DNA of 44,425 bases from a virus: IMG/VR virus record IMGVR_UViG_3300031910_000474, one strand, 5' to 3'. Positions 5,285 through 39,408 of this stretch are shown piece by piece. The notes beneath the pieces are model-generated. The model searched no databases. It saw nothing but the letters and a program-made list of their open reading frames with translations, and had not been told where the DNA came from. Position 1 is the stretch's first letter. Each line of letters starts with the position of its first letter. The position numbers and the translations under genes are program-made.

Positions 5285-5509
5285 ATGAAACGCCCGACGC
5301 TTTCGATCGAAGAAGCGACTATGGTGCTCGCGGCCATCGCGCATGATTCCACGCCGGAAGAACAGGACCGTGCGAACGCGCTGGCCAAAGTGGTCTACAC
5401 CGAACACTTCATGGACAAAGCGCCTGTGCGCGAGTTCGGCTTGTTCATTTTTTCCCTGCTGTGGGACTTTGCCGAGAATTGCGAACTGCTCGAGGTGAAA
5501 CCGGAATGA
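5285..5509 (+). CDS. Hypothetical protein (74 aa)
   Basis: ATG 5285 is preceded by GAAAGGGAAACGCCG, which resembles the leader box of the leftward operon. An alternative start is ATG 5261. Confidence 0.5.
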   Translation: MKRPTLSIEEATMVLAAIAHDSTPEEQDRANALAKVVYTEHFMDKAPVREFGLFIFSLLWDFAENCELLEVKPE

Positions 5510-5514
5510 ATCGC

Positions 5515-5543
5515 TTGACGCGCAATCGAACTCAGTGATAACA
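5515..5543 (+). promoter_or_regulatory. Candidate sigma70-like promoter
   Basis: TTGACG (5515-5520), about 16 nt, then GATAAC (5537-5542), upstream of an AGGAGG RBS and ATG 5585. The host is unknown, so this is weak. Confidence 0.3.
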
Positions 5544-5584
5544 GTTTGCTCGCAGTAAAACTTCCGCAATCAGGAGGAAGCCAA

Positions 5585-5917
5585 ATGATCAAACAGAAAA
5601 ATCAGCCTCTCGCTTTGCTCGTGATCTTTGCACTTTCGATGACTCCGCTGACGCTCGGGTTCGTTTCGTTCTACACGCACCCGTATCCTGCAGGCCCGTT
5701 CGGCGGCGGCGGCGGTGACGCGAAAATGAGCGGCTACGTGTGCGGCCCGATGTGCGACGGCATTGTCGCTTGGCTGATCGATCGCGGGCTGAATTACGTT
5801 GCCGACCATTGGAGTGATCCGAGCGGCTGCGCGACGGGCACGTGCGTCGGCAATGCCTCGATGGGCGGCGTGGGCAGTGCGGGTTCACTTGGCGGCGGCG
5901 GGGGAAATACCTTTTGA
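5585..5917 (+). CDS. Secreted or membrane-anchored Gly/Cys-rich small protein (110 aa)
   Basis: AGGAGG RBS. N-terminal hydrophobic helix LALLVIFALSMTPLTLGFVSF, then GGGGG tracts and 5 Cys. Confidence 0.6.
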   Translation: MIKQKNQPLALLVIFALSMTPLTLGFVSFYTHPYPAGPFGGGGGDAKMSGYVCGPMCDGIVAWLIDRGLNYVADHWSDPSGCATGTCVGNASMGGVGSAGSLGGGGGNTF

Positions 5918-6417
5918 GCGTAGCGAAACGGCTGATCGAAGCGGTACGCATCGGACGCTGGCGGCAGGCGGTGCACGTTATGCACGACAACGATTGCACC
6001 GACGGCGAAGGCGAATGGACGAACCCGATCGGCGTTGCGGGCGAACTGCAGTTCGAACTCGAAAGCGGCTACACAATGAATCGCACGCTCGATCATCGCG
6101 GCGATAGCGGCATTGATTTCAATTGTCCAGGCGGAACGGTCGACGTGAAATGCGTGCAGAAAAAGCCGCATCACCTGTTCATTGAAGTCGGCAAAGCGGT
6201 CGCAGATTATTTTGTGATGTATCGCTTTTTCAGTTTCACCGACGTGCGTTTCATCGGATGGTGCACACGAGCCGACGCATTGCGAGCTCCGCAGCGCGTC
6301 ACAAAAAAACTGAATTATGAGCCGAACTTCAGGCCGAGCCGCGCCGACCTGCTCGAACTGCTTCGCACTGTGACGAAGCGTGTTGACGAGCGGCCAGCGT
6401 CCGGCTTACTCTTCTGA
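5914..6417 (+). CDS. Putative PD-(D/E)xK-fold nuclease-like protein
   Basis: GVAGELQFE...GDSGIDF...TVDVKC (E / D / DxK spacing). The start is uncertain: TTG 5914 in a TTGA overlap, or ATG 5980. Confidence 0.45.
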   Translation: MSVAKRLIEAVRIGRWRQAVHVMHDNDCTDGEGEWTNPIGVAGELQFELESGYTMNRTLDHRGDSGIDFNCPGGTVDVKCVQKKPHHLFIEVGKAVADYFVMYRFFSFTDVRFIGWCTRADALRAPQRVTKKLNYEPNFRPSRADLLELLRTVTKRVDERPASGLLF

Positions 6418-6480
6418 GCCATCAGGTAGATCAGGCGCTCGCGCCTACAAGGCGCTGCAAGACCATTCGCGCAGAAATGG

Positions 6481-7050
6481 TTGTATCTCGTGGCAGGAGT
6501 AATTTACCTCCACAGAAGCGGCACGGAGAACCTCGTCTACATTGGACAGACGATGCGCTTCGAGGACCGCTGGGACGAACACGTTCTCGCGGCCTTTATC
6601 GGAAGCACAACGCCGTTCCATCAAGCGATCCGCCGCCTCGGGCCTTCTGATTTTTCCTGCGAGATACTCGCCGAAGCGAAAACGCGTGAGGAATTGAATC
6701 TCCTCGAGAAGCGTTTCATCGCCTACTACGACGCAACCGATCCAGCGAAAGGCTATAACGTCATGGTTGGCGGAACTTCTTCGCGAACATTGCGGCCAGA
6801 AGAAGCGATGGCTCCGCAAGGCATGCCGCTCGAGCAGGCATTGCCGCTCTACAATTGCTACGGCGAATTTATCGGGAAAATTCGAGTCCAACACGCACTG
6901 CAGATGCATGGCGTTTTTCTTCAGGTCCGCGCTCGAGGGACCGGGCGAAGACGTCACTTTACTTCCGCAAAACTTTACGCGCGCAGAACATGGCGATGGG
7001 AACCGAAAACCTCGGACGGTTTCATCGTGATGCAACTCGTGCGTGCATAG
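6481..7050 (+). CDS. GIY-YIG homing endonuclease (free-standing)
   Basis: GVIYLHRSG..LVYIGQT..F.DRWDEH...F..AIRRLG..F..EIL.E...EELN.LEKRFI..Y....GYN. The start is TTG 6481 or GTG 6490. Confidence 0.8.
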   Translation: MYLVAGVIYLHRSGTENLVYIGQTMRFEDRWDEHVLAAFIGSTTPFHQAIRRLGPSDFSCEILAEAKTREELNLLEKRFIAYYDATDPAKGYNVMVGGTSSRTLRPEEAMAPQGMPLEQALPLYNCYGEFIGKIRVQHALQMHGVFLQVRARGTGRRRHFTSAKLYARRTWRWEPKTSDGFIVMQLVRA

Positions 7051-7061
7051 GAGAAAAATAA

Positions 7062-7592
7062 ATGGCACCTCCGTTTGTAGTGGCAGCGAATCCGTCCACC
7101 TGGAACACGCTCGTCGGCGGGCAGGGCGGCCCGTCATTCGCCACAGGCCCGCAACCGTGCGCCGGATTTCAGGTCAGCGACATCACGCTTTCAAGCGCGC
7201 AGATTCTTGCAATTCAGACTGGCGCGATCACGCTGATTCCCGCGCCCGGCGTGACAGGCTGGTTTCTGAATATCGACAAGATCATCATGCGTCTGATCGC
7301 GGGCAGCGCGGCTTACACCGACGTGGGCGGCGCGGTTTCGTTCGCGGTCGGCGGCCTTTCGATGGCGCTCGCGTCGAATGCAATCTTCCTCGTGACGACC
7401 GCACCGAACCGCAGGCAGCAAGTCGTCGACTTCGCGGCGGCAGCTGCAGGCACAGGCGTCACGGGCACCGCAGCGAATCCGCCGACTGAAGACAACGCAG
7501 CGTTCCAGATCAGCAAAGCGACGAATAACTTTGCTGCCGGGAACGGCACGATGCACATCACGACGTACTACACGACCGAAGCGAGCCTCTAA
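7062..7592 (+). CDS. Stand-alone paralog of the tail-fibre C-terminal domain (176 aa)
   Basis: Residues from about 42 to 176 align with the last ~128 aa of the 24918..26264 product (LSSAQILA.QT...L..APGV, AYTD.GGAVSFA, ANAIFLVT..PNRR.QV, AANPP..DNAA..I.KATN.FAAGNGT). Confidence 0.7.
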   Translation: MAPPFVVAANPSTWNTLVGGQGGPSFATGPQPCAGFQVSDITLSSAQILAIQTGAITLIPAPGVTGWFLNIDKIIMRLIAGSAAYTDVGGAVSFAVGGLSMALASNAIFLVTTAPNRRQQVVDFAAAAAGTGVTGTAANPPTEDNAAFQISKATNNFAAGNGTMHITTYYTTEASL

Positions 7593-8269
7593 TGCCGCCC
7601 TTCATGACGCAGCCGCCGCAATTGCAGCCGCGCCGTGGAATCACCGGGGGATTGCCTGCGTATTCCTTCGGCTCGTTTCCCGTCGGCTTGCAGCCTGCGC
7701 GCATGGTCGTTACCTCGGTCGCGGTCGCTTCAAACGTGGTGACGCTCGGCGTGAAACTGCTCGAAGGAAACATTCCGACAACCGCAAACTTCGTCACGGT
7801 GACGGGCACGGTTGTCGGCGGCTCGACGGTGAACGTCACGAACACTGCGCTGACTGGCGTCACGATCGCGCCAGCGACAGGCGTCGGCACGATCACGTAT
7901 TCGCTTACGCTCGCGAATCTTTCGACGACGCCCGACGGCGGTCAGGTGTTTGTGCTCGCGCAGGACGTTGGCGAAACAACTGCCGTCGCGAAGGGGCAGC
8001 AGTTCGCGCTCGCGCCCGACGGCGGTTACGGCCTTACAGTTGTTTGGGCGTGCACCGCAGCGACGGTCGCACTGCAACTCGAAGGCTCAGTCGACGACGT
8101 TGACGCGCAGTACGCGATCATCGGAACGAGTCAAACCACGCTCACAGGCTCGGTGCTTGCGCAGGTGCCGACCGATGTGCGTTTCGTTCGCGTGAATACA
8201 ACTGCGTTTACGGGCGGCCCCGGCACGCTTTGGGCGAAGATTTATCAGTCGACGAATGCCGGGAACTGA
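7592..8269 (+). CDS. Beta-rich T/V/G-rich hypothetical protein, probably structural (225 aa)
   Basis: Translationally coupled ORF inside the fibre-like cassette. Confidence 0.55.
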   Translation: MPPFMTQPPQLQPRRGITGGLPAYSFGSFPVGLQPARMVVTSVAVASNVVTLGVKLLEGNIPTTANFVTVTGTVVGGSTVNVTNTALTGVTIAPATGVGTITYSLTLANLSTTPDGGQVFVLAQDVGETTAVAKGQQFALAPDGGYGLTVVWACTAATVALQLEGSVDDVDAQYAIIGTSQTTLTGSVLAQVPTDVRFVRVNTTAFTGGPGTLWAKIYQSTNAGN

Positions 8270-8877
8270 TGTTTGTTCAAACTGCTTCCGACAATTTCAC
8301 GCGGGCGAACGGCGCGATCGGGGGCAATTGGACGGCAAGCGTGGGAGGGGCGGTGATTCTGTCAAACACCGCTGCCGCAGCGGTCCCTTCGTCAGGAGCG
8401 GGAAACAGAAACAATCTTTTCTGGTCCGCGCAGTCGTTTCCGAATGATCAGTACGCGGATGGAGTTATCGCAAGCGTAACGACTGGAGCATTCGCCGGGC
8501 CTGTGGTACGCGGAAGCGCCGGCGGTGAGCACGGCTATATCTGCCTTGTGCCGCCGACAGGCGTGTCAGGTTCCGTGATCGTTCAGCAGGCGCCGACAAA
8601 CTTGTCGATTCTCGTTCTTCCGGGCATTACGCCGCAGATCGGCGACGTTTTCAGGATCGCGGCGGTCGGAACACTGATCAGCGTCTATCAGAACGGCGCG
8701 TTTCTCGGTTCGATCGTGGATTCGTCGCTCGTTTCCGGCGCGCCTGGAATATTTCTTTTTCCGAACGGCAACGGACAAACTGCTGCGGAATTGTCTTCAT
8801 GGGCTGGCGGTTATGTTTCAAGCGGCGGCGGCGGCGGTGACATCGGCCCCGGCTTCGATTTCAAATTAAAATTATGA
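8269..8877 (+). CDS. Lectin/jelly-roll-like module protein (202 aa), single module
   Basis: ATG 8269 (TGATG overlap). DNFTRANGAIGGNW...NDQY...GD.F.I.A.G..I.VYQNG; C-terminal tail GGGGGDIGPGFDFKLKL. Confidence 0.6.
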   Translation: MFVQTASDNFTRANGAIGGNWTASVGGAVILSNTAAAAVPSSGAGNRNNLFWSAQSFPNDQYADGVIASVTTGAFAGPVVRGSAGGEHGYICLVPPTGVSGSVIVQQAPTNLSILVLPGITPQIGDVFRIAAVGTLISVYQNGAFLGSIVDSSLVSGAPGIFLFPNGNGQTAAELSSWAGGYVSSGGGGGDIGPGFDFKLKL

Positions 8878-10424
8878 CACTTGTTCGTGACAGTTTCGCT
8901 CGAGCCGATGGTTCCCTGGGACCAAACTGGGTGAATAAATGGTCCGGCAATTCCGAGGGCGCCGTCGGCCTCGGCGACATGGCCATCATTTCGCAAGGCT
9001 ATGGCCCGACAAACAATCATTCCGCTGAACGGCTGATGATGTGGAACGGCGGGCAAACCTTCGGAAACGATCAATATTCGCTCGCCGTCGTGAAAACGAT
9101 TGCTCCAAACATTGCGACGCTTTCGATCACGGCAGTCGCCAATGCAGGCGTGAACTTATGGACGTACACCTATACGGTCACGCAAGGCAGCGTGGCCGCG
9201 GTGATCGCAGGCGGCGGTTTGTTTGCGCAGGTCAGCGGCATGGCGAACGCCGGAAATAATATCACCGTCAAGCCGCAGATCATTACCGCCTACGGCGCGG
9301 GAACATTCACCGTTTCGAGTACGACGGGAGTTGCCGAAAGCGGATCAAGCGGCATCGGAAACTGCCCGAGTGATTCGACGAGTGGCGTGGCCGTTCGTGC
9401 GTCGAATCGAACCTGCTATTACCAGATTCAAGGGCCGAACACGTTTAACGCTCTAGGAAGTTACACGCGTGAAATGTGGAGTCTGATAAACGGTGTCGGC
9501 AGTGCAATCGAAGGAACGGGAATCAATAACACGCCGAATCTTATCGGTGACATCGTTTGCATGGTGGCTGTCGGCACGCAGATTAAGGTGCTCGAATTAA
9601 GTGCGGGCGTCTGCACAACGCAAGGGCCTACAACCGACGCGAACATTGTTTCGGGAACGCCCGGAGTTTATGACTGGTGTTTTGGCGGCCCGCAGGAATA
9701 CAACTGGGGTGCATGGGGCAATTCGGGAGTCGTCGGCAGCGATCCGCCGGGAAACGCAGGCACAACGTGGAACAACTGGCAGGCCGGGGATTTTTCTCTG
9801 GTCGGAAGTCTGCCGCTCGGCGTCGACAATTTCACGCGAGCAAACGAAAGTCCGCTTAATCCCGCCAACTGGACCGTGCCGAGTGGAACGGGCACAGGAA
9901 ATTTGCAGGTCGTCAGCAATCTTTGCGTGTGCGGTGCTTCAGTTGTTTCGTTCAACGTTGAAATCTTTACGGGCGGCGGAGCGCCCGCAAGCGCCGATCA
10001 GTATGCGCAGATCACCGTGCAGAACGTCGGTTCAGCGATGGGAGTCGTTGTGCGCGCCTCGACAAGTTCCGTCACGTTCTATTATTTTCAGTGGAACAAT
10101 GCGGGCGTTTTCAATTTGTTCAAAGTCGTCGCCGGAACGGTGACGGGACTCACTAGCCAAGGCGGCATAGCGTTTCCTGTCGCGGGCGATACGATGGGCC
10201 TCATGGCGCTCGGGCCTTTGCTCGTCTGTTTGCACAATGGCGTCGTAATCATGTCGTGGCTTGATACTTCGATCGCTGCGGCGAATCAGGGTGCGGGCCT
10301 CTGGATTCAAGGCGGCCCGGGTTCAGTCAGCGCGTTCTCGGGCGGCACAATTCCGATCACGCCGAACGTTGCAGGCGGCGGCGGCGATCTCGGTCCAGGC
10401 TACGATCTGAAATTCGGTTTTTGA
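8874..10424 (+). CDS. Two-module lectin/jelly-roll-like protein (516 aa)
   Basis: ATGA overlap. Module 1 DSFARADGSLGPNW...NDQY; module 2 VDNFTRANESPLNPANW...ADQY; C-terminal tail GGGGDLGPGYDLKFGF, paralogous to 8269..8877. Confidence 0.6.
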   Translation: MTLVRDSFARADGSLGPNWVNKWSGNSEGAVGLGDMAIISQGYGPTNNHSAERLMMWNGGQTFGNDQYSLAVVKTIAPNIATLSITAVANAGVNLWTYTYTVTQGSVAAVIAGGGLFAQVSGMANAGNNITVKPQIITAYGAGTFTVSSTTGVAESGSSGIGNCPSDSTSGVAVRASNRTCYYQIQGPNTFNALGSYTREMWSLINGVGSAIEGTGINNTPNLIGDIVCMVAVGTQIKVLELSAGVCTTQGPTTDANIVSGTPGVYDWCFGGPQEYNWGAWGNSGVVGSDPPGNAGTTWNNWQAGDFSLVGSLPLGVDNFTRANESPLNPANWTVPSGTGTGNLQVVSNLCVCGASVVSFNVEIFTGGGAPASADQYAQITVQNVGSAMGVVVRASTSSVTFYYFQWNNAGVFNLFKVVAGTVTGLTSQGGIAFPVAGDTMGLMALGPLLVCLHNGVVIMSWLDTSIAAANQGAGLWIQGGPGSVSAFSGGTIPITPNVAGGGGDLGPGYDLKFGF

Positions 10425-10431
10425 GGAAAAC

Positions 10432-10782
10432 ATGTTCGGAAAAGGCGTCGACCCGAAAGTCGGCAAAAGCACGCAGTTCAAAAAAGGCTGCAATCATAAT
10501 CCGAAGGGCCTGCACGGCGAATCGGAAGATGCGCGCAAGGTTGCCTCGATCCGCAAGGTGCTGTTCGCGCTCGTGCCCGAAAAGGAAATGAAACGCCGCT
10601 GGAAGTTTTTCCTCGATAATTCGAACACCGATATAAAGTGGACCGCGTTCAAACTCGCGCTTTATTACATGTACGGACGCCCGCCGAAGCGCCCGATCAA
10701 TCCCGACGATCAGGCGGAATCGAACATGGGCGAGGCGTTCGACTTTTCGGATTTCCCGACGGGTAACACTCCGATCCAGTGA
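10432..10782 (+). CDS. Putative terminase small subunit
   Basis: Lies immediately upstream of, and is GTGA-coupled to, the large terminase. N-terminal TQFKKGCNHNPKG resembles the F.KGqSGNPkG box of DUF5681-type small terminases. Confidence 0.55.
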   Translation: MFGKGVDPKVGKSTQFKKGCNHNPKGLHGESEDARKVASIRKVLFALVPEKEMKRRWKFFLDNSNTDIKWTAFKLALYYMYGRPPKRPINPDDQAESNMGEAFDFSDFPTGNTPIQ

Positions 10783-12266
10783 AGATCAGCGACTGGTACA
10801 AACCGCAGCCCGTGCAGCGCCGCTTCCATGAAAGCGAGGCGAAGTACCCGCTGCTCGAGGGCGGGCGCGGCGGCGGCAAGTCGACGGCTTTGATGTGGGA
10901 AGCGATCATGGAATGCTTGCGCGTTCCAGGCTCGAACTGTTTGCTGTTGCGGCGCACGCTGACGAGCATGGAAAAGGGCGGCATCGAGGATCTGTTCACG
11001 AAGAACGTGCCGAGAAAACTTTACTGGCGATACAACGCCTCGCGGCATATCGTGATGTTCGCGAACGGCAGCAAACTTTTTTTCGGGCACATTTCGAATG
11101 ACGCGGACCTGCTGCAGTATCAGGGCGCGGAATTTCTTTTTATCGGCTGGGAGGAATTGACGCAGTTCACTTACGGCCAGTGGGAATTTCTGAAAGGCAG
11201 TAACCGCTGCCCGATCAAAGTCTACATGCACGGCGGCAAAACGTTTCCGGTCAGGCCGCGCATGGCCGCAGGCACAAACCCGAACGGACGCGGCTCGGGC
11301 TGGGTGAAGGCGCTGTGGATCACGCGCAAACCCGTCGGCGACATGGCGCTGAATTACGACGCCGGCGACTACGAAGCGATCCACTCGACTTACGAGGACA
11401 ATTTCGTTTATGCGAACGACAAGGATTACATTTCAAAACTCCATTCCATCGTCGATCCTGTCCTGCGAGCCGCTTGGATCCCCGGCGACTGGAATATCCT
11501 CGCTGGACAGTTTTTTCAAAACTGGGATCCTGCTCGACATGTCAAGCGATACTCGGACTGCATTTTTGAAGACTGGCAGGACCGATGGATCTCGATCGAC
11601 TGGGGTTTCGAGCACGCGACTGTCGTGCTCTGGTGGACCCGAGTCAGAATAAAAACGGAATTTGATCCCGACGCGAAGAAGAACGTGATTCTCTGTTACC
11701 GCCAATTGGTTGCGCGGCAGACGAACGAAGAGATCCTCGCGGAGAAAATCGTCAATGCCAATGCCACTGGGGACAAGTTCGATCGTGTGGGGCGAATTTA
11801 TCTTTCTCCCGACCGATTCAGTAAAATCGATCAGCACCACAGCATTGCGGACAAGATGGGCGATGTTTTTGTACGATTCGACCTTCCGCGTCCTGAGCGC
11901 GCAAACAACCGTCGCGTCGACGGCTGGCGGCTCTGTTACACCCTGCTCGACACTGATGGAGTCGCTGTACTTGACAACTGTCCAGATGTGATCGATTCGA
12001 TCCCGAAACTCATGCGGGACGAGAAAAACCTCGAGGATGCGGCAAGCGAGGGCAATGAACTTTTTCTCGACGTGTGCGAGTCGTTTCGCTACGGCCTTAT
12101 GAGTTATGCTTCCGCCGCCGGGGTGCCGAGAGAAGTCGCCATGCAGCGCGAGATCCAGGCGATCAAGGGAAACACGCAGAAGTACATGCGTTATCTCGAG
12201 CTTCAGGCGAAGCCGAAATCGAGCGGGATCACGTTTACGGTGAATCGCGGAAGGCGGCTCAGATGA
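10779..12266 (+). CDS. terL: Terminase large subunit
   Basis: Walker A LLEGGRGGGKST, Walker B-like LFIGWEELTQF and a C-terminal nuclease-like region. Size is 495 aa. Confidence 0.85.
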   Translation: MKISDWYKPQPVQRRFHESEAKYPLLEGGRGGGKSTALMWEAIMECLRVPGSNCLLLRRTLTSMEKGGIEDLFTKNVPRKLYWRYNASRHIVMFANGSKLFFGHISNDADLLQYQGAEFLFIGWEELTQFTYGQWEFLKGSNRCPIKVYMHGGKTFPVRPRMAAGTNPNGRGSGWVKALWITRKPVGDMALNYDAGDYEAIHSTYEDNFVYANDKDYISKLHSIVDPVLRAAWIPGDWNILAGQFFQNWDPARHVKRYSDCIFEDWQDRWISIDWGFEHATVVLWWTRVRIKTEFDPDAKKNVILCYRQLVARQTNEEILAEKIVNANATGDKFDRVGRIYLSPDRFSKIDQHHSIADKMGDVFVRFDLPRPERANNRRVDGWRLCYTLLDTDGVAVLDNCPDVIDSIPKLMRDEKNLEDAASEGNELFLDVCESFRYGLMSYASAAGVPREVAMQREIQAIKGNTQKYMRYLELQAKPKSSGITFTVNRGRRLR

Positions 12267-14474: not shown

Positions 14475-14672
14475 ATGGCCGAGGAAAAATGGATGCAGCA
14501 CGTTTCGAAAGGCATCGAGCACCGCGGCACGAAAGGCGTCTTCCGCGAAGCGGCACACCGCGCCGGAATGAGTACACACGCTTACGCCGAAAAGAAAAAG
14601 CATTCTGCGGGTAAAACTGGCCAGCGTGCACGCCTCGCGCTGGCGTTTATGGGCGCAAAGCATGGCGGATGA
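14475..14672 (+). CDS. Hypothetical small basic protein (65 aa)
   Basis: Internal ATG 14475 (MAEEKWMQHVSKG). Confidence 0.45.
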   Translation: MAEEKWMQHVSKGIEHRGTKGVFREAAHRAGMSTHAYAEKKKHSAGKTGQRARLALAFMGAKHGG

Positions 14673-17193
14673 AGAACAATTGGAAGGCGCGGGCCACGAA
14701 GAAGGAATCGAGGAAGAAGTCGAAGAGTTTCTGCCGGGCGAACTTTGCGCCGTCGACGGTGTTACCGAAGAAGATAAAGTCGATCTCGAGGAAGAAGACG
14801 ATTCGGGCCTCACGCAGGAAGAAAAAGAAGGCGTGCTCGCCGAACTCTGCAACGCCGCAACGCAGCGCGATCTCACTTCCTATCGCCTTGAAGTCCGCGA
14901 CGCTTGGAAAGCGCGGTATTTCTGGCGTGGTAATCAGTTCCTCTTGCCTGGAAGAAATGGTGCGTGGGTTCTTCCGCAATTGATTCTCGTCGGCGGCCAA
15001 TCTTACGACGACCACAATTCGGAAACGAATATTTATCTGGCGTTCGGCGACACGATCATCGCCTCGCTGACCGCAGGCACGCCGAGCGTCCGGTTCGAGC
15101 CGGACGACCCGACGAATCCCGCCGACGTCAGCGCCGCCGAGAATTCCGAGGGAGCTCGGCGGCTGATTGAACGTGCGAATAACATGATCGTCGCGCAAGA
15201 GGATCTTTGCCGTTTTCTGTGGACGGATTCGCGCTGCATCACGCTTACGAAGTACGTGCTCGACGCCCAGCGGTTCGGCTATGAGCAGCGCAGCGAACTC
15301 GAGGATGAGCTCGGCTATCTGCCAGAAGAAGGCGAAAAGGTCGGCGAAGAATCCGGCGAGGAAGAAATCACCATCGGACGCGGCACGCCTCGCGGTCAGG
15401 AAATCGTTGAAAACTTCGGCGCACTCGAGTCGAAGATTCCCATGCAGGCGAGTTCGATCGACGAATGCGATTACGTGCAGATCGCGAAAGAACGCGACAT
15501 CACGCGCATGAAAACGAAGTACCCGAAGAAGGCGAAGGATCTGCAGCCCATGCAGACGCCGACCGCGAACACCGAATATATGCGGCTGGCGCGTACTTCG
15601 ATCATGACCGGAATGCGTCCGTCGAACATGACGAACGACGCGATGACGTACAACTGCACCGAGCAATGGATGTGGTTCCGTCCGAGTTTTTATCCCGAGT
15701 GTAAGGACGAAACGAAACGCGAATGGCTGTACGACACGTTTCCGACGGGCTGCTACGTTGCAATGGTCGGCAAAACAGTCGTCGAAGCGCGCCGCGAGCA
15801 GATCGACGATCACATCACGCTGACGCACTGCCGCCCCGGCGACGGTTCGCATCGGCCGGCGCTCGGTTCGCCGCTGATCCCGATTCAGGAAAAACTGAAC
15901 GACTGCATGGACTACATGCACGACGCCTACATGCACCTCGTGCCGCTCAAATGGGTTGACTCGGAAGCGGTCGATAAAGAGGCGCTCGAGGAACTGCAGA
16001 CAAAGCCGAATCAGTATGTCGTCATGAAGCGGCGGCCAGATAAGGACATGGCATCGAACATTTTCGTCGAGCCGCAGATCCAAATTGCCGAGGGCCTCAT
16101 GCTGTATATTCAGCAACTCTTCGGCGAGATCCCGCAATTTCTCTGCGGCGCGTTTCCGGCGTTGTTTGGCGGTGATACAGGGGCGAACGATACGGCCAAG
16201 GGCATCGCGGGCCAGCGCGATCAGGCTCTTGGCCGTGTCGGGCTGACGTGGCGAAACCTGAAAGCGAGTTATGCGCGGATCGTGCGGCAGGCCGTCGCCG
16301 CCGCCGCGAAATTCCGCAATTCGCCGATGTCCGGCGAAATGCCGGGCGCGGGCGGCGCAAAGGAAATCATCAACGTCGACCCGAACGACCTGAAAGGGAA
16401 CGTGCGGTGCTATCCCGACACGGATGAAAACTTTCCCGAGTCATGGGTTGCGCAGCGCGGAATTTGGCAGGGCCTCATGGCCGCAGCGGCGGCGAATCCG
16501 ATTCTCGCGCAGGTGCTGCAGGTTCCGCGCAACCTCGCGATCGCAAAGGATAAAGTCGGCCTGCCCGAGCTCGTCATTCCGGCGGCAGCAGCCGCAGCAA
16601 AGCAGCAGGCCGAAATCATGGTGCTGCTCGAGGGCGCGCCCGTGCCGAACCCGGCGCTCGAGCAGGCAAAGCAGGCTGTGCAGTCATTGAACCCGCCGCC
16701 TGGAACGCCGCCCGAGCAGATCCTCATGGCGCAGCAGAAAATGGCGCAGGCGATCACGCAGATTCCGCCGCTTGTGAGTTCCGTGCCGATCGACGAGGAA
16801 CTCGACGACCATCAGAACGAAATGGGCGAGATCCTGACGTTCGCGAATTCGCCGAAGGGGATCAAGGCGCGTGTCGAGAAGAAGGACGGATTTTTGAACT
16901 TGCGGCTGCATTATGACGAGCACAAACGTGCGCTGGCCGCCAAGATCGCGCAGCAGCAGGGGCAGGGCAGTCAGTTCAAACCCGTTTCGGATTCGGTCAG
17001 CGTGAGTTTCAAGGATCTGCCGCCCGAAGGGCAGGCACAGGTCGCGGCAAAGATGGGGATCCAATTGAACCCGCAGAATCTCATGGCCGAGGATCAACTC
17101 GAAAAGGCGCACGACATCAAGGCGCTCGCGACGACTCCGAAAATTCCGCCCGGCGGTGATCAGGCACCCGGGCAGAAACCGCCCGTGATGTAA
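14662..17193 (+). CDS. Putative portal protein (843 aa)
   Basis: Large ORF downstream of the terminase and directly upstream of the scaffold-like and capsid genes. Acidic N-terminus. The call rests on synteny and size only. Confidence 0.55.
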   Translation: MADEEQLEGAGHEEGIEEEVEEFLPGELCAVDGVTEEDKVDLEEEDDSGLTQEEKEGVLAELCNAATQRDLTSYRLEVRDAWKARYFWRGNQFLLPGRNGAWVLPQLILVGGQSYDDHNSETNIYLAFGDTIIASLTAGTPSVRFEPDDPTNPADVSAAENSEGARRLIERANNMIVAQEDLCRFLWTDSRCITLTKYVLDAQRFGYEQRSELEDELGYLPEEGEKVGEESGEEEITIGRGTPRGQEIVENFGALESKIPMQASSIDECDYVQIAKERDITRMKTKYPKKAKDLQPMQTPTANTEYMRLARTSIMTGMRPSNMTNDAMTYNCTEQWMWFRPSFYPECKDETKREWLYDTFPTGCYVAMVGKTVVEARREQIDDHITLTHCRPGDGSHRPALGSPLIPIQEKLNDCMDYMHDAYMHLVPLKWVDSEAVDKEALEELQTKPNQYVVMKRRPDKDMASNIFVEPQIQIAEGLMLYIQQLFGEIPQFLCGAFPALFGGDTGANDTAKGIAGQRDQALGRVGLTWRNLKASYARIVRQAVAAAAKFRNSPMSGEMPGAGGAKEIINVDPNDLKGNVRCYPDTDENFPESWVAQRGIWQGLMAAAAANPILAQVLQVPRNLAIAKDKVGLPELVIPAAAAAAKQQAEIMVLLEGAPVPNPALEQAKQAVQSLNPPPGTPPEQILMAQQKMAQAITQIPPLVSSVPIDEELDDHQNEMGEILTFANSPKGIKARVEKKDGFLNLRLHYDEHKRALAAKIAQQQGQGSQFKPVSDSVSVSFKDLPPEGQAQVAAKMGIQLNPQNLMAEDQLEKAHDIKALATTPKIPPGGDQAPGQKPPVM

Positions 17194-19648: not shown

Positions 19649-19853
19649 AGTTTTGCGTTCCCGGTCAATCCGATCGTGTCCCGAGTCACGTAAAACGGAA
19701 AACTCGGACCCGAGCAACGCAATGCAGCAAGTGTGACCAAAAACCCTTTTGGGTTACGGTTACATCACTGTCGTTCCACACTCAGCAGACCGATGCTGGC
19801 CGACTCAGGCGGCGAAACCGAAAACGACAAGTCCACAATGGAGCAGCCCAAGA

Positions 19854-21182
19854 ATGGCCGCTCTTAATGAAGCCGCAGTGCAAGCGGTCGAACTCGAAAC
19901 AGTACGGGAAGAAATTCCCGATTTGATGCTGACCGAGGACACGCTATACGCCCGGCTTAAAAAGGCGGGCCGCGTTCTGCCGATGTCGACTTCGACAGGC
20001 GGATCAAGCGGTTCGACTTACGATCCGACGGGCCGACCGTCGCTGCGCATTCCGATGCGCATCGCGGCAGGCTCAACGCACCAGCAATTCAGCGCAGACG
20101 GCGGCGACATGGGCCGTGGCACGGGAAGTTTCTATGCCGCGCAGTTCATTACGCCGATCAGTTTCTCCGAGGCGTGTGAGATCACCGCTCAGGCTCTGTG
20201 GTCTACTGAAACGGGCAAGAAATCACGCGTCCAGGTGAAGGCTTCCGAGTTCACGCATACTTTGGAGCAGTTCAAATCCAATTTAGACGCGGACCTGCAG
20301 GGCGACGGCAGCGGAACGCTCGCGACCGTCACGACTGCAAACTCGGGCACTGGATCTGCCGGACCTTCTTTTTCAAATATCATCTGCAGCAACGCAAACC
20401 AGTTTTACGACAATCAAGTCGTGCAAGTGTTTCCTTCGGTCGGCGGCGTAAGCCGCGGATCGTTCCAGATTTCCTACGTCGACGGCGTAGTGAATACGAT
20501 CTGGAGTGCGCAGGCTCTGCCTGCCGGAACCACGGCAAACGATTTGCTCGTCGTGAACGGCGCGCCGGGATCCGCTTCTTCTTCGCTGATGGGAGTCAAA
20601 GCCTATCAGGTGAACGGGAACTCGGGAACGCTGAACGGCCTCGCCCGTTCGAACTTCCCGGGGCGGCTTTCGACGCCCACGGTCAACTTGTCGGGCGCGG
20701 CGATCACCGTACCAATTGGCCGCCTCGTCGTCAGTAAGATCGCGCTCGCGCTCGGCAATGAATCGCCGGCGCTGGCCGATCTGATCTGGTATCTCAACGT
20801 TGATCAGGCTGCCGCGATCGAAAACCTCGCGATCCAAGTCGCGATCACAAATCAGCAGGAAATCAAAGGCGATTCTTCGCAGGACATGCTGAAAAAGTTC
20901 ACCCCTGCGACCTTCGTCGGTTACGACCTAGTGAAATCCGTGCACGCCACGCCGGGCCGTGTCGACGCCCTTTGCCTGAAATACTGGGGTATGGGCGAGC
21001 TCAAGGCGTCGGATCTTTACGACGTCAACGGGCAAACCGTTTTCCCGACCATTGGTGCCAGTGGCGGCATCAACGCGTCGACGGTGTTTTATTTCGTGAC
21101 ATCGTTCAACGTGTTCAACTCCAACGTGCGCGCTGGCGCTTTCATTCAGAACGCACAGATCCCCACGGGGTATTTCAGCTAG
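19854..21182 (+). CDS. Putative major capsid protein (442 aa)
   Basis: Internal ATG 19854 (MAALNEAAVQ). Preceded by a 200-bp structured spacer and followed by a strong hairpin. Size and position fit a capsid protein. Confidence 0.6.
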   Translation: MAALNEAAVQAVELETVREEIPDLMLTEDTLYARLKKAGRVLPMSTSTGGSSGSTYDPTGRPSLRIPMRIAAGSTHQQFSADGGDMGRGTGSFYAAQFITPISFSEACEITAQALWSTETGKKSRVQVKASEFTHTLEQFKSNLDADLQGDGSGTLATVTTANSGTGSAGPSFSNIICSNANQFYDNQVVQVFPSVGGVSRGSFQISYVDGVVNTIWSAQALPAGTTANDLLVVNGAPGSASSSLMGVKAYQVNGNSGTLNGLARSNFPGRLSTPTVNLSGAAITVPIGRLVVSKIALALGNESPALADLIWYLNVDQAAAIENLAIQVAITNQQEIKGDSSQDMLKKFTPATFVGYDLVKSVHATPGRVDALCLKYWGMGELKASDLYDVNGQTVFPTIGASGGINASTVFYFVTSFNVFNSNVRAGAFIQNAQIPTGYFS

Positions 21183-24917: not shown

Positions 24918-26264
24918 ATGAGCTTTCGCTACGACGGACGCGTGCAGGATATTGTAGGCAACGCCATTGCCGGCGCTTCGATCGCCGTCCTTACGCAGCC
25001 CGCAAACACCACGACGCAGCCCGGCTCGCCGCTTGCCACGATCTACAACGGGCCGAACACGGTTTCGAACACGGTGTCGACGGCCTCGTGGTCGAACCTT
25101 ACGGCGCAACTGACTTTCGTGCTCGGCCTCGCACCGAGCGCCGACGTGATCCCGGGAAACTTTCTCGGCATCGCGGGCGTAACGCCCGTCGGCTATAACG
25201 GAATTTGGCAGATCGTCAGCGTGGCAGGCACGACGGTCGTCGTCACCACGCCGTACACGCTTGCCGCGATCGCGAACCCCGGCACGTATCTAGCAGGCGG
25301 CACCGTCACGACGTCGATCATGCCGAACCCGTTCCCGACCGATACACTCGGAAATTTTTTCTTCTATGCCGCAGCGGGGATTTACACGGTTCAGATTTAC
25401 GATTCGCTTTCGCGCATTGCGCCGCTCGTGCTCGCCGATCAGAACGTGACCGCAGGCAGCGGAACGGGCAGTGTAACAAGCGTTGCGCTGACGGTGCCCG
25501 GGGAGTTCAGCGTTTCGGGCAGCCCGATTACCACGTCCGGCACGCTCGCCGTCACGAAGGCAAATCAGAATCCGAACCTCGTTTATGCAGGCCCCACAGG
25601 CGGCGGCGCAGCTGCACCGACTTTCCGGGCGCTTGTCGCAGCGGACATGCCTGCAGGAACGGGCACTGTAACAAGTATTTCACACACGCTCACGGTGCCG
25701 CCGATCTTCAGCGCAAGCGTGGGCGGTTCGCCGATCACGACAAGCGGCACGCTGGCCGATGCGGTTTCACTTGTCAGTCAGAACGCGAACCTCGTGTGGG
25801 CAGGGCCGTCGTCAGGCGCTGCCGCGAATCCGACCTTCCGTTCGCTTGTCGCGCAGGATTTGCCGTTCACCACGACGACGCTCAGTTCGGCGCAAATCCT
25901 CGCGCTGCAAACTACGCCCGTTACGCTTGTCGCCGCACCAGGCGTCGGATTCACGATCGTGCCGACGAGGATCGTGATCAAGTTTTTCGGCGGCGGCATT
26001 GCCTACACGGACGCGGGCGGCGCGGTAAGTTTCGCGAACGGCTCGATGAGCGCGGCGCTGGCAGCCAATGCCATTTTCCTTGTCACCGTATCGCCGAACA
26101 GGCGCATACAGGTTTTCCCGTGGCCGGGCGCAACCGACACGGCGGCTAATCCGCCCTCGGACGACAATGCCGCGCTCACGATTCAGAAGGCGACAAACCA
26201 ATTCGCCGCCGGGAATGGAACGGCGACGATCTTAGTCTGGTACTACATCGTACCCACGACGTAA
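24918..26264 (+). CDS. Tail fibre protein (448 aa)
   Basis: Tandem ~65-aa repeat (G)TG.VTS(V/I)...P..FS.S.GGSPITTSGTLA......QNANLV(Y/W)AGP..G.AA.PTFR.LVA.D(M/L)P (aa 182-316), typical of phage fibres. The C-terminal domain is paralogous to 7062..7592. Confidence 0.75.
   Translation: MSFRYDGRVQDIVGNAIAGASIAVLTQPANTTTQPGSPLATIYNGPNTVSNTVSTASWSNLTAQLTFVLGLAPSADVIPGNFLGIAGVTPVGYNGIWQIVSVAGTTVVVTTPYTLAAIANPGTYLAGGTVTTSIMPNPFPTDTLGNFFFYAAAGIYTVQIYDSLSRIAPLVLADQNVTAGSGTGSVTSVALTVPGEFSVSGSPITTSGTLAVTKANQNPNLVYAGPTGGGAAAPTFRALVAADMPAGTGTVTSISHTLTVPPIFSASVGGSPITTSGTLADAVSLVSQNANLVWAGPSSGAAANPTFRSLVAQDLPFTTTTLSSAQILALQTTPVTLVAAPGVGFTIVPTRIVIKFFGGGIAYTDAGGAVSFANGSMSAALAANAIFLVTVSPNRRIQVFPWPGATDTAANPPSDDNAALTIQKATNQFAAGNGTATILVWYYIVPTT
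25461..25865 (+). repeat. Intragenic tandem repeat (2 units) in the tail fibre gene
   Basis: Two consecutive diverged units, seen in the translation and in the DNA (GGAACGGGCA(G/C)TGTAACAAG...). Confidence 0.7.
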
Positions 26265-26273
26265 GGAGAAAAG

Positions 26274-26672
26274 ATGGCAACCGCTACAGTCAAATGGAAT
26301 ATCACCACGCAGCAGCCGACGAGCCTCGGCAGCATCGATCAGGAAACGGTAACGTTTTCGGGTACGGTGACTTTCAGCGCCGCCGCGGACACTTACGCGA
26401 CGGGCGGCCTGCTTCCGGCTGCCGGATTCGCGCTGAAAAATCTCGGGCCTTATGCCGATCGCGCTCCGCTCGCGTGGACCGTGGCATCGCAGGCGGGCTC
26501 AGGCTGGGAATACGAGTACAACGTGAGCACCGGGAAACTGATGATCATTGCGGGCGGCGGTTCGGGCACGGCGGCGACTGTCGAACTCACGAACGGCACG
26601 GCACTGAACGCCGCAACGCCGAACATCTTTACCGACGTCGTGAAATTCCAGATGGTTTTCCCCCGGATCTGA
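26274..26672 (+). CDS. Hypothetical small structural protein (132 aa)
   Basis: AGGAGA RBS; beta-rich. Lies between the fibre and the giant tail gene. Confidence 0.55.
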   Translation: MATATVKWNITTQQPTSLGSIDQETVTFSGTVTFSAAADTYATGGLLPAAGFALKNLGPYADRAPLAWTVASQAGSGWEYEYNVSTGKLMIIAGGGSGTAATVELTNGTALNAATPNIFTDVVKFQMVFPRI

Positions 26673-26680
26673 TCTGAACC

Positions 26681-29600
26681 GTGGACAACGTTCTCGAAAC
26701 GAACGGCGTCCCGCTGACCGTTTTCGGCGGGGCAGTTCCCGAACTCGCACCCGAGGACCTGCCCGAAGGGGCCTCGCCGTTCAATCAAGATTGCGACTTT
26801 AACCCGGGATCCGTCTTCACACGCGGCGGTCGCACGAATCAGTATTATTACCAGAATCTTTTTTACGACAAGATCACGCAGTTCGCCCGCAACGCGCCCG
26901 GGCCGTTCTTCCCGAACGAAGTCGCGTGGATTGCGCCGCAGAACGTGCAGAACAACACGCCGGGCAGTTACGCCGTCGCGCAATTGAATCAGGGCGTGAA
27001 CATTTCGAACGTCGTGCAGTTCAAACAGGTGCAAATCAACACGACGACGACGACGTTTACCGCAGCCTTCGATAATCCAGTCGCGGCCGGTTCGGCGGTG
27101 TTCATCGCGCTGTTCATTCACGATTCGAACGGTTCGGTCGAGGGCGTGAACTGCACCGCCTGCGTCGACAACCGCGCGCAAACCGCCGATCACATCGTCG
27201 CGAACCTTTCAACGCCGAATAATAACGACATCTGTTTCTCGATCGGCTACAAGTCCGCACTCGGCGGAAATCAGTCGTACACCTTCACTCTTCAGACAAA
27301 CGCCGCTGGAACCCTCACCGCTTCAAACTACGCCTATTGTCTTTGTGAAATCATTGCCACGCAAAACGCGGCCAGTGCCGATCCGTTCGATCAAATGGTT
27401 GCCGAAGTTGTTTCAACCGTCACGGGATTCGGCGCGGGCCTCGTCACCACGGTGACGGCGAACGAGCTCATGCTGTCCGTCGTGCAATGCACCGGGGCGT
27501 CATGGAACGGCTTTTTGATGCCGTCGCAGTATTACTTCACGGGCGGCAATGAACCGCTGCAACGCGTTATTTCGACGATCGCAACACCGACTGGAAACTT
27601 TCAGGAACAGGCTTTGATCGGTCGGAATATCCCGACGAATCCAGGCGCTGCCGTACCGATCGCAAACTGTGGTCCCGTCACGTCCGTCACCGGGCTTGTG
27701 GTGTGGATCACGCTCAAGATGACGAACGCGAACGCCATCGGCACGCCCGGAATTCTGGCGCTCGATTCGGTCGTTGCCGGCTCAGGCAGCGGCGGCACCA
27801 CGATCAGCTTTCCCCCGATCACCACGGCGCACGACAACGAAATCATTTACCTGTTCGCCGCGTACACCACGAACTTCGGCTATCCCATCATTGCGCCGCC
27901 CGAAGGTTATGTCGGCTCGAGCCTGAACGGCGGAAACGGTTTCGTCGGCTGCATGTTTGCGCCGACTGCCGGAACCTATTCGCCGCCTGCCGCGACCGTG
28001 GCCGCTGGCGGCTCGAGTGGCGCAATCGCGGCGTCGATCAGTTTCAGCGTTGCAGGCCCCCTCGCGCAGCCTGCGTTGCTGCAGATGATCGGCAACGGAT
28101 CGAACATTCCGGCAGGGCCGCAATTGTTCACGTGGCCGAATCCCGTCACGCCGGGCAGCACGATCATCTGCATGTTCTCGAGCGGCTTCGCGACAGGCGG
28201 GTTTGCCGGGCCGTGCTCGGATACCGTCGGCGATGTTTTCACGCCCGTAGTGCAAAGCGCCGCCACGAGCACCGGAGTTCCGCCGCATAACTTCGTCGCC
28301 TTGACGATCAACATCTGCCAGAACACGATCGGCGGCAACACCGACATGACGGTGCAGGGCGGCGGCGCGGGCCTCGGCGGCGCGCAGTTCATCGCCATTG
28401 AGATCGCTCCGGGCGCGCTGGCCATTTCGCCGACGCCGCATTCCGAAATCCTCGCCGCGAGTAACTTCGGTTTTAACTTCCCGTTGACGCAGCCGATCCT
28501 CGGCATGGAGATCGAAGTTAGCGGGCACCAGTCGACGCTCGATCCGAGCGCCACGATCAGCGTCACCACAAACCAGACGGGATCCTCGACGGTCGTGACG
28601 CAAATGCCGGGATCGGACGGCACGATCACGATCGGCAATCCACTCAGCAATTTCGGGCTCGCGCTGACGCCCGCCATGCTGAACGATCCGGGGTTCACGG
28701 TCGAGATCCAGGCGAACGAGTCGAACCTGACGACCGCCGCGACGTTCGACCTGTACGCGGTACGTGTGCGCGTATTCGTCACGCCGTTTCCGCCGTGCAA
28801 TTTTGACTGGATCAAAACTTACGAGCAAACGGATGGCGAGATCGATACGCTCGTGCTCGACGCGAACGGCATTCTGTGGGACGAAGATGTGGACACGAAC
28901 CCCGGGGTGCTCAATTCCATTTTCACGACGATCCTAAAAAACACTTACGCGAAATCCGTCACGTTCGACGACATCGAATACATTGCGTTTTCGAACCTTG
29001 TGAACGGCACCGACGTGCCGCGGCAGTGGAACGGCACGAACCTCGACCGTATTTCGATGGTCGGCCCGGGCGCAAAGCCGAGCGCGAGCTCCGCAGGCAG
29101 CGGCTCGAACACGTTCGCAATTCAGAACACCACGCAGCAGTCGCCCGTTGAGATCCGCCGCATCGCGTGGGGCACGGTGAATTCGCCGAGCGTTTCAACT
29201 CCCGGCAATCTTCTCGTCGTGTTCGGGCAGGGCCGTCAGGTCAGCCCGCCCGCGCCGCCGCCCGACTATTCGACTTTGAAACCGTACACGCCGACCTTCG
29301 GCTCGGGCACGCATGTCGTGCTGTCGGGCATTCCGAGCCCGTTTCCGAAAAAAGGCGGCGGCACGCTGCCCTACAACATAAACGGAAACTATCTCGTCGG
29401 GACGGTGCAGTTCGGCAATGTCGGCGGAAACGAAAACTGCCCGACGTTCACGCTGCCCAGTCCGACGACTACATGGGCGTATTCGGACGACTTCGGCTCA
29501 GGTCAAGCGCCTGGAGTTCCGCCGCCGTCCGGCTGGTTTTACCAGTCGTGTATCGCAACCGTGACGATGCAGGTCGGGCTGCCGAACGTCGGCCCGGGAA

Positions 29601-32486: not shown

Positions 32487-33083
32487 GTGATAGATAGCAA
32501 TCAATTTATCAAGGAGATCAAGAACCGCGATCCGAAACTCGGTTTGCTGCTCGAAACATGGTTCGACTCGTGGAACACGTCATTGAATCACCTCGGCATG
32601 AGCGCGACGGGCCTGCACCAGCCGCCGCATCCGATCGCCGGCGTGAACGTCGCGGCAGGCTCGGATCATGTGCACGTCACGCTCACGGACGCTTCGGCGG
32701 TGAAGAAGAACATCCAGTATTTCGTCGAATACTCGGTGAACGATCCGACGTTCGCGCAGCCGCACGTGCAGGATCTCGGTGCGTCCCGCGGGCACGTTTT
32801 CCCGCTGCCCGCAAAAGACGGACTCGGTGCGCCGATCAACTATTATTTTCGCGCCTATTCACAGTACGCCGGAAGCGATCCGCAATCGAAGCATGCTTAT
32901 TGGGGTACGCTCGGCGCGCCAACTGCCGTGACACTGACAGGGAGTTCGCAATTGACTTTGCTGCCGTCGACCGGAAGCGGCACGGGCCGAAGTGACGGCA
33001 CGCAGGGCGGCAGCGGGATCGGCTCGGTGCTGACGCGCCCGCCCGTGCAGCCGAAGCAGTGGCCGTTGCCGAAGGTGACGTGA
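32487..33083 (+). CDS. Hypothetical virion protein, possible FN3-like core (198 aa)
   Basis: GTG-start ORF; HVHVTLTD...IQYFVEYS...YYFRAYSQY. Confidence 0.5.
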   Translation: MIDSNQFIKEIKNRDPKLGLLLETWFDSWNTSLNHLGMSATGLHQPPHPIAGVNVAAGSDHVHVTLTDASAVKKNIQYFVEYSVNDPTFAQPHVQDLGASRGHVFPLPAKDGLGAPINYYFRAYSQYAGSDPQSKHAYWGTLGAPTAVTLTGSSQLTLLPSTGSGTGRSDGTQGGSGIGSVLTRPPVQPKQWPLPKVT

Positions 33084-39366: not shown

Positions 39367-39408
39367 AAGGGCCCCGTCGTCATGGCGACTGCGGGGCCTT
39401 TTTTATTT
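39367..39408 (+). terminator. Rho-independent terminator of the rightward late operon
   Basis: GGCCCCG (39370-39376) pairs with CGGGGCC (39392-39398), followed by TTTTTTATTT. Lies at the convergence point with the leftward operon. Confidence 0.75.

Follow-up and report, generated by a model that had tools for sequence, protein, structure and literature searches.

Lectin-like accessory proteins with a shared C-terminal tail, a candidate docking peptide, encoded before the terminase genes in an uncultured soil phage

Results

The window analyzed here is the whole 44,425-nucleotide (nt) stretch of IMG/VR virus record IMGVR_UViG_3300031910_000474. It is the near-complete genome, of about 45 kb, of an uncultured soil phage, and contigs of up to 45.6 kb from JGI, ENA, and Logan carry its sequence at 99.9% identity. 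Immediately upstream of the terminase genes is a cassette of four genes, designated here gp1 to gp4, of which the last two encode proteins that consist of lectin-like modules and end in the same short peptide (the tail peptide). We read gp3 and gp4, with moderate confidence, as interchangeable glycan-binding host-range heads that are tethered by this portable C-terminal docking peptide, probably to gp2.

A first-pass annotation made from the letters of the window had described four tightly coupled open reading frames (ORFs) between a GIY-YIG gene and TerS/TerL, roughly 14 kb from the tail genes, and our analysis bore out both the coupling and the placement. Gp1 (176 amino acids [aa]) occupies positions 7062-7592, gp2 (225 aa) 7592-8269, gp3 (202 aa) 8269-8877, and gp4 (516 aa) 8874-10424, all on the plus strand, as are the GIY-YIG, TerS/TerL, portal, capsid, fibre-like, and RecT genes placed below. 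The junctions overlap (TAATG, TGATG, and ATGA), and the four ORFs are translationally coupled. The same annotation had taken all four for paralogs, which had to be corrected: only gp3 and gp4 share the lectin-like module, while gp1 is fibre-related, gp2 is unrelated to the others, and both of these are conserved core genes.

The exact C-termini of gp3 and gp4 are GGGGGDIGPGFDFKLKL and GGGGDLGPGYDLKFGF, respectively, so the unusual ending that had been reported for both proteins is real. Each comprises a Gly-rich linker followed by D(I/L)GPG(F/Y)D(F/L)K(L/F)x(L/F)-COOH and, with the stop codon included, linker and tail peptide together span 8824-8877 in gp3 and 10374-10424 in gp4. The consensus for the lineage is GGG-D-L-G-P-G-Y-D-F-K-F-R-M-COOH, a peptide of about 12-13 residues in the form of an amphipathic strand. 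In the AlphaFold2 (AF2) model of gp3, the last 19 or so residues (linker and tail peptide) are unpacked and unstructured; the mean predicted local distance difference test score (pLDDT) is 74 for residues 181-190, 50 for 191-200, and 45 for 201-202, with values under 50 only in the segment 199-202. When 1,058 ORFs of at least 80 aa from the window and nine other loci were compared, an alternating-hydrophobic C-terminus was found only in gp3 and gp4, their counterparts in other loci, and two ORFs that look non-coding.

About 20 genes with different heads carry the tail peptide, and the heads include LamG-like, GH43-like, and CHB_HEX_C domains and a domain of unknown type ('MGLTF'). Further examples from the corresponding genes of relatives end in ...GGDIGPAFDFRLRL, ...GSDLGPAYDFKLRF, ...GGDLGPGFDFRLRM, and ...GGSLLGGSSDFKFKL. 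The conserved element of these proteins is the C-terminal 12-17 residues; their N-termini differ. Of the 150 best representatives of the module family described below, 10 have a tail of the canonical type, GDLGPG(Y/F)DF(K/R)(F/L)(R/K)(M/L/F), or one close to it, two or more others have a looser version, and these tail-bearing representatives are proteins of 597-1476 aa with GH43/GH32-like propellers, CHB_HEX_C domains, or CarboxypepD_reg domains. In a codon alignment of 20 tails, synonymous variation was free (GGC, GGA, GGT, and GGG for Gly; CTC, CTG, and TTG for Leu; CGG, AGG, and AGA for Arg). Because synonymous codons vary, it is the peptide and not the DNA that is conserved, indicating selection at the peptide level; the same free variation excluded a recombination site or an RNA element in this region. 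A degenerate DNA pattern for the tail peptide matched 6 IMG/VR stretches and 14 JGI metagenome stretches, and had 0 matches in 185,579 reference genomes of bacteria and archaea. No published description of the motif turned up when the literature was searched for the sequence.

Taken together, these data suggest that the tail is probably a docking peptide. The first-pass annotation had proposed a docking or processing peptide and a search for it in other phages. The tail was found in two phage lineages, in a diverged form in the second, and the number of genes that carry it, the synonymous variation, and the position of these genes downstream of gp2 (below) speak for a functional, portable peptide; processing was unsupported. 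Four gp4-family proteins of other phages (P0004, P0027, P0029, and P0046) share another ending, ...YSVPDCRV..SRNVQGT.IYDVQ....IPP.DSR..GAPVDSRV.PNIPQNSRTPGTFGPGE, which suggests a second, distinct conserved attachment or chaperone element.

Relatives of the window were recovered from IMG/VR by means of gp2. Their proteins are 76-81% (TerL), approximately 70% (portal), and approximately 90% (major capsid protein) identical to those of the window. All of these relatives retain gp1 and gp2 between TerS and a small ORF that is a homolog of the last third of the GIY-YIG protein of the window, and the TerS/TerL boundary is kept throughout the lineage of the window, yet the slot that follows gp2 holds anywhere from 0 to 3 different genes. 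The interval between gp2 and TerS is empty in L017, and the slot is likewise empty, without tail-bearing genes, in L012-L016. Two proteins of about 230 aa follow gp2 in L011, and three proteins follow it in L010 and L028. Every one of these slot proteins ends in the same tail, on heads that are either the lectin module or an unrelated domain of about 210 residues. Sequence comparison thus supports gp3 and gp4 as accessory genes, in keeping with the accessory set that had been proposed for the cassette, since the slot is empty or differently filled at 76-81% TerL identity. In L012-L016, a 373-aa protein, an 87-aa ORF, and a collagen-repeat protein (Pfam Collagen, 1.8e-14) lie between gp1 and gp2 (L013:4154-6085), the last of these ending 1 nt before gp2 in the L013-type phages.

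The first tail-bearing gene is directly downstream of a gp2 homolog in all of the approximately 15 distinct architectures with readable upstream DNA (the window, L010, L011, L020-L023, L025, L026, L028, L034-L036, L038, and L041-L043, plus a second lineage). In the lineage of the window, the tail-bearing genes are also upstream of TerS/TerL. In the second lineage, represented by contigs of about 65 kb (L002, L032, L047, and L048), the first tail-bearing gene again directly follows a gp2 homolog, but the identity of this gp2 falls to 38-47% and the tail takes a divergent form, ...G-F-x-F-x-F-x-F (GFxFxFxF), with the individual endings LADFRFGFDFNF, GLGFNFDLTF, RFGFGFNFKF, GLGFDFRFRF, DFGFNSDFGF, and DSDFSFEFKF. 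The tail-bearing genes of that lineage are located at the end of the late operon, after a glycosyltransferase/methyltransferase cluster. Genes for glycosyltransferases, S-adenosylmethionine-dependent methyltransferases, and an NAD-epimerase are directly upstream of gp2 there (L002:1-7473, L032:1-9943, L048:71-6553, and L047:1-885); the products of this cluster could serve to modify virions or glycans.

Homologs of gp2 number 94 (34-100% identity), none of them annotated, and scans of 32 of them against PHROG gave a single weak match to 'tail fiber protein' (E 0.0034), which is a hint only. A gp2 profile searched against the PDB returned chance matches to VirB8 only. A similarity between the N-terminal domain of gp2 and an insert in gp4 (BLAST E 0.066) was not supported by hhalign (E 0.13), and gp2 was also rejected as a paralog of the lectin-like module (hhalign E 0.66). 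In L030 and L031, two more distant phages whose gp2 is 35-41% identical, the gene is at the end of the structural module, preceded by homologs of the window genes at 26274-26672, 26681-32125, 32487-33083, 33085-33810, and 33813-35573. The gene right after it in L031 encodes a protein with an N-terminus similar to that of the window's fibre-like protein. No tail-bearing gene is beside gp2 in L030, L031, L017, or the L013 group, and the IMG/VR pattern scan found none elsewhere on the L017 and L013 contigs either. Because gp2 is kept in these phages without tail-bearing neighbors, it has a role of its own, most simply that of a structural protein associated with the tail or fibre; heads that bear the tail peptide are optional additions.

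The module itself was examined with a hidden Markov model (HMM) built from gp3 and two single-module homologs. Three copies of about 190 aa, one in gp3 (8269-8823) and two in gp4, were confirmed by the HMM and by BLASTP of gp3 against gp4 (three segments; E 2e-6, 4e-5, and 8e-4), with the motifs that had been quoted for them: the opening motifs are DNFTRAN..GGNW, DSFARAD..GPNW, and DNFTRAN..PANW, and NDQY, NDQY, and ADQY occur within the modules. The C-terminal copy of gp4 (9804-10373) was matched at residues 315-513 with E 7e-22. The N-terminal copy (8874-9743) was matched at residues 1-173 and 205-266 and is interrupted by an inserted domain of about 95 residues (aa ~75-170; 9096-9383) that is conserved in P0003-P0008. 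The signature of the insert, ...(I/V)(S/T)G(M/F)xNxxNNGxFx(V/I)....G.GTFTV..., is present in all gp4 homologs; segments of the fibre-like protein at 24918-26264 (aa ~60-135) and of L001:12415-13758 resemble it by appearance, without statistical support. P0002 is a 422-aa version of gp4 that is gp4-like for about 318 residues and then follows the frame of an alternative ORF at 9601-10143. It lacks the C-terminal module and tail, as a frameshift variant or through a sequencing error.

Neither gp3 nor gp4 had a relevant ConA-clan match in Pfam at E<=1, and single-sequence searches of the PDB with either protein gave chance matches only. Other members of the family matched ConA-clan entries below threshold (3keto-disac_hyd, DUF6250, DUF7257, and the GH59 C-terminal lectin domain), for example PF06439 at 15-17 bits versus a cut-off of 26.8 and DUF7257 at 13 bits versus 27. 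A profile of 55 modules searched against PDB sequences reached CBM66 chains 4b1l, 4azz, and 4b1m at E 1.8e-8 to 2.5e-8 over about 110 residues; CBM66 of the Bacillus subtilis levanase is the sole solved structure reached by sequence profile, and this module binds fructans (PMC8715580). The AF2 model of gp3, made from a 55-sequence alignment, is an all-beta sandwich of about 14 strands (pLDDT 86.6; predicted TM score 0.84). Foldseek found 85 matches to this model in the PDB at E<=1e-3, and the 50 listed are mostly ConA-like domains, among them BppU-CBM, CBM66, GH16, the GALC lectin domain, and ERGIC-53. The best match was 8ZDO chain a (E 2.4e-6; TMq 0.63), a chain of 311 residues that we take to be BppU of mycobacteriophage Douge since the length agrees, and the CBM66 structures matched the fold at TMt 0.66-0.68. 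The matches among the predicted viral structures of BFVD were minor tail proteins, tail fibres, a putative receptor-binding protein, and actinophage DUF7257 proteins.

These data agree with the first-pass prediction of a ConA/LamG-like jelly roll, and on the strength of the profile and the gp3 model we consider it very likely that the module is a ConA-like beta-jelly roll resembling CBM66 and the Douge BppU carbohydrate-binding module (CBM). From the modeled fold and from the co-occurrence of the module with esterase, GH43/GH32-like, CHB_HEX_C, and PKD domains, we infer that the modules bind carbohydrate. The GH16 catalytic E-x-D-x-x-E motif is absent from gp3 and gp4, and no Glu is invariant among the 55 aligned modules. 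A 12-sequence module profile matched 20,423 of 1.84 billion representative proteins at E<=1e-3 (9,618 at E<=1e-10), and many proteins of the family hold 2-13 copies. The module is thus a new, very large, un-modelled branch of a known class of fold and function (CBM66, DUF1080, DUF7257, and BppU-CBM).

Homologs of gp3 and gp4 have been placed among virion genes elsewhere. Gp3 matches phrog_2804, 'virion structural protein' (6e-12), and Orf37 of Gordonia phage GTE6, which carries the same annotation and is the last gene in the GTE6 tail module; some homologs of the GTE6 group carry a hydrolase or lysin A domain annotation. The gp4 homolog P0005 is within the structural module of a 44-kb phage contig. 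Searches of 50,697 GenBank phages with gp1, gp2, and gp4 (tblastn) gave no match, and no related loci were found in IMG/VR with gp4 alone.

Gp1 is related to the tail-fibre-like protein of 448 aa at 24918-26264: its residues 42-170 and residues 321-442 of the fibre-like protein share 58% identity (E 4e-41), whereas the N-terminal 41 residues of gp1 are different. The fibre-like protein matches phrog_9625 in two stretches (3.4e-21), and the corresponding part of its C-terminal domain is encoded at 25878-26243; it contains two repeats of about 60 residues, which we take to be of a kind typical of tail fibres. Homologs of gp1 that are 56-83% identical lie upstream of gp2 in L010-L017, L025, L026, L028, and L034-L043. 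Gp1 is therefore a stand-alone second copy of the distal, tip domain of the fibre, and a conserved part of the locus.

Upstream of gp1, the ORF at 6481-7050 encodes a GIY-YIG homing-endonuclease-like protein (Pfam PF01541, 8.8e-7, 29.6 bits versus a cut-off of 22.6; phrog_7168, 6.7e-17) with an N-terminal nuclease domain and a C-terminal region of about 75 aa. The GIY-YIG domain is missing from species-level relatives, including L010 and the L013 type, in which a 74-aa ORF, a homolog of the C-terminal third of the protein, is all that is kept (L010:8661-8885 and L013:3381-3605). In L011, an HNH gene (L011:553-957; phrog_3377, 3e-29) lies between gp1 and gp2. The locus is a landing zone for homing endonucleases of two types at two sites. 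No co-variation was seen between endonuclease presence and gp3/gp4 content, and the mobility of gp3 and gp4 that had been suggested from the neighboring GIY-YIG gene is therefore unproven.

Downstream, a 7-nt spacer with GAGG separates gp4 from a 116-aa ORF in the TerS position (10432-10782), which forms the downstream edge of the slot, and TerL follows at 10779-12266 (Pfam Terminase_3, 6e-11; phrog_2, 1e-27). The portal (14626-17193) and major capsid protein (19749-21182) genes come next, and the fibre-like gene, 14.5 kb from the cassette, is the nearest recognizable tail gene. A 1814-aa protein and other large structural proteins extend to about 39.3 kb; most of the structural proteins, including the 1814-aa protein and one of 1122 aa, have no family match. 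Toward the end of the window are a C5 cytosine DNA methylase (39380-40660, minus strand) and a RecT recombinase (43222-44334) with early genes alongside. The window has zero tRNA genes, no integrase was recognized among the ORFs scanned, and a promoter/terminator scan of 5500-11000 gave no signal exceeding shuffles. One contig that is otherwise 99.9% identical (L004) has the segment with ORFs 5546-5917 and 5842-6417 missing or replaced (window 5288-6411), just upstream of the cassette, which makes a second small polymorphism of the indel kind; ORF 5546-5917 encodes a Gly-rich putative membrane protein. Apparent differences among near-identical contigs in the gene upstream of gp1 (165, 161, and 199 aa) came only from different start calls or from the ends of contigs. 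A search of the 185,579 reference genomes for a prophage or host gave no TerL, and two gp2 homologs are in metagenome-assembled genomes labeled Acidobacteria and Xanthobacteraceae, which is weak evidence on the host.

Discussion

Our results are consistent with a mechanism in which the one or two ConA-like modules of gp3 and gp4 would bind glycans on the host surface, with the heads of relatives also degrading them. The C-terminal strand, behind its flexible poly-Gly linker, would tether any head fused to it to a conserved component of the virion; docking would be non-covalent, most likely on gp2, with strand addition as the probable mode. The slot between gp2 and TerS would then serve as a hot-swap site for lectin, GH43-like, CHB_HEX_C, or unknown heads, which could be added, dropped, or swapped by recombination between the conserved gp2/TerS flanks and the tail-coding ends. 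In this way the lineage might change or stack its host-range determinants with the core tail untouched. A virion-associated, host-range role for gp3 and gp4 is likely. The case for gp2 specifically as the socket is close to balanced, and gp2 is put forward as a candidate socket or adaptor tentatively. Overall, the first-pass interpretation is partly supported, and for gp3, gp4, and the tail peptide it is right in the main; on the two points that could have told against an accessory lectin-like set, the fold and the invariance of synteny, the jelly roll and the variable slot left it standing.

Several observations weigh against this mechanism. The presence of gp3 and gp4 in the virion and the docking of the tail on gp2 are both features that we infer. 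The AF2 model of gp4, made from 7 sequences, was poor (pLDDT 52.6), and the invariant D/R/W/Q/Y residues of the module could be structural. Gp2 had no family match in Pfam, PHROG, or the PDB, and its occurrence in L030 and L031 without tail-bearing neighbors means that it has a function independent of the tail peptide. The genes could be adjacent because they are co-expressed or stand in a chaperone relationship, with no socket involved. In addition, the anchors of phage receptor-binding proteins (RBPs) are, to our knowledge, N-terminal domains and not C-terminal peptides.

The adjacency of gp2 and the tail-bearing genes is so strict, and gp2 so devoid of a recognizable structural family, that gp2 could be an assembly chaperone or adaptor that recognizes the C-terminal peptide, much as tail-fibre assembly proteins grip the C-termini of fibres, with the heads attaching in some other way. 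We consider this unlikely: gp2 persists where there are no tail-bearing genes (L017, the L013 type, L030, and L031), it is upstream and not downstream of its putative clients, and a small head like the 202-aa gp3 offers no other stretch by which it could be anchored. The tail could also be an oligomerization tag, in the manner of a mini-foldon or beta-annulus, that bundles heads into multivalent lectin bouquets and does no docking itself. Lectins usually require multivalency, and a short GPG turn plus an amphipathic strand at the extreme C-terminus after a flexible linker would suit such a tag, but this would leave unexplained why gp2 is always adjacent and why gp2 and tail diverged in parallel in the second lineage, and a bouquet would need an anchor anyway. 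The probability of this explanation seems to us quite low.

Two further explanations place the heads away from the phage tail. In one, the tail peptide would target heads to the HK97-type capsid, either outside as decoration or inside as encapsulin-like cargo. The cassette adjoins packaging and head genes, and the targeting peptides of family-1 encapsulins have the same format (C-terminal, about 10-13 aa, a Gly-rich linker, and a G-x-L-G-x-G core; consensus SDGSLGIGSLKRS). The match to that consensus is loose, however; the heads are CBM and glycoside hydrolase (GH) domains of extracellular type whose structural relatives are tail proteins, and the linkage is to gp2, which is found in tail modules elsewhere. 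Capsid targeting is accordingly improbable. In the other, gp3 and gp4 would not be virion proteins at all, being released at lysis or acting on the host envelope, with a C-terminus that mimics an outer membrane protein (OMP) beta-signal or a PDZ ligand (Phi-x-Phi-x-Phi-x-F-COOH). The alternating aromatic/hydrophobic residues with a terminal F, L, or M would fit, some phages keep lysis genes just upstream of the terminase, and there are the hydrolase and lysin A annotations in the GTE6 group. Yet no signal peptide or transmembrane segment is present at any N-terminus, homologs belong to structural modules, one of them with the annotation 'virion structural protein', the Gly-linker format favors tethering, and the fold is a soluble jelly roll rather than the beta-barrel expected of proteins with an OMP beta-signal. 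We regard this last explanation as very improbable.

The encapsulin comparison extends further than the capsid. Like the family-1 targeting peptide (PMC8346489), the tail peptide is short, C-terminal, preceded by a flexible linker, portable, and encoded beside its candidate partner. In contrast to encapsulin systems, there is no encapsulin shell gene, the adjacent genes are gp2, which does not look like an HK97-fold protein, and the terminase, and portal and tail genes are present in the genome; moreover, the tail resembles SDGSLGIGSLKRS in G-x-L-G-x-G only, so that the analogy is one of format. There is only a slim chance that the tail is the phage counterpart of the cargo-targeting peptide, a universal short address for arbitrary proteins on an HK97-type particle. 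If it were, tailed phages would use, and may have originated, the peptide-addressing principle of encapsulins to display glycan-binding heads.

Returning to exchangeable glycan-binding heads on a docking peptide, the closest structural parallel is BppU of phage Douge, in which a ring domain at the N-terminus is joined through a flexible linker to a C-terminal CBM with binding to mycobacterial lipoarabinomannan/arabinomannan (LAM/AM) and alpha-glucan (PMC13033339). Gp3 and gp4 share with it a ConA-like CBM on a flexible linker, which in BppU sits at the periphery of the phage tail. The arrangement is reversed, however, with a candidate anchor that is a C-terminal peptide of about 12 residues instead of a 100-residue N-terminal ring domain; the sequence identity to the gp3 module is approximately 16%, and the position in the genome is another. 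Likeness to CBM66 of the SacC exo-levanase (PDB 4AZZ, 4B1L, and 4B1M), 3keto-disac_hyd/DUF1080, and DUF7257 is in sequence profile and fold, but the gp3/gp4 family has its own N-terminal signature, D-x-F-x-R-x-x..W, and reaches no Pfam threshold. The modular RBPs of Klebsiella and other phages likewise combine a conserved attachment element with glycan-binding or depolymerase heads that are exchanged horizontally, and a phage can carry several RBPs (PMC6872550, PMC8262889); they have an N-terminal structural anchor domain, with the module for specificity at the C-terminus (PMC8262889). The present system differs in that the candidate anchor is a short linear peptide at the C-terminus and that the cassette lies apart from the tail module, just before the terminase genes, and is strictly coupled to the orphan conserved gene gp2.

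Phages change their host range mainly through modular exchange of their receptor-binding heads, and current phage engineering is based on the same exchange. All well-described systems of exchangeable heads that we know of rely on sizeable N-terminal anchor domains. If a C-terminal peptide of about 12 residues suffices to attach unrelated heads, it would constitute a minimal, portable 'plug' that may be useful for retargeting or decorating phages. The findings also provide a first functional handle on a CBM-like family of more than 20,000 representative clusters, on the orphan gp2, and on an uncultured lineage of soil phages in which this locus, with its homing endonucleases and the turnover of its cassette, stands out as a hot spot of evolution.

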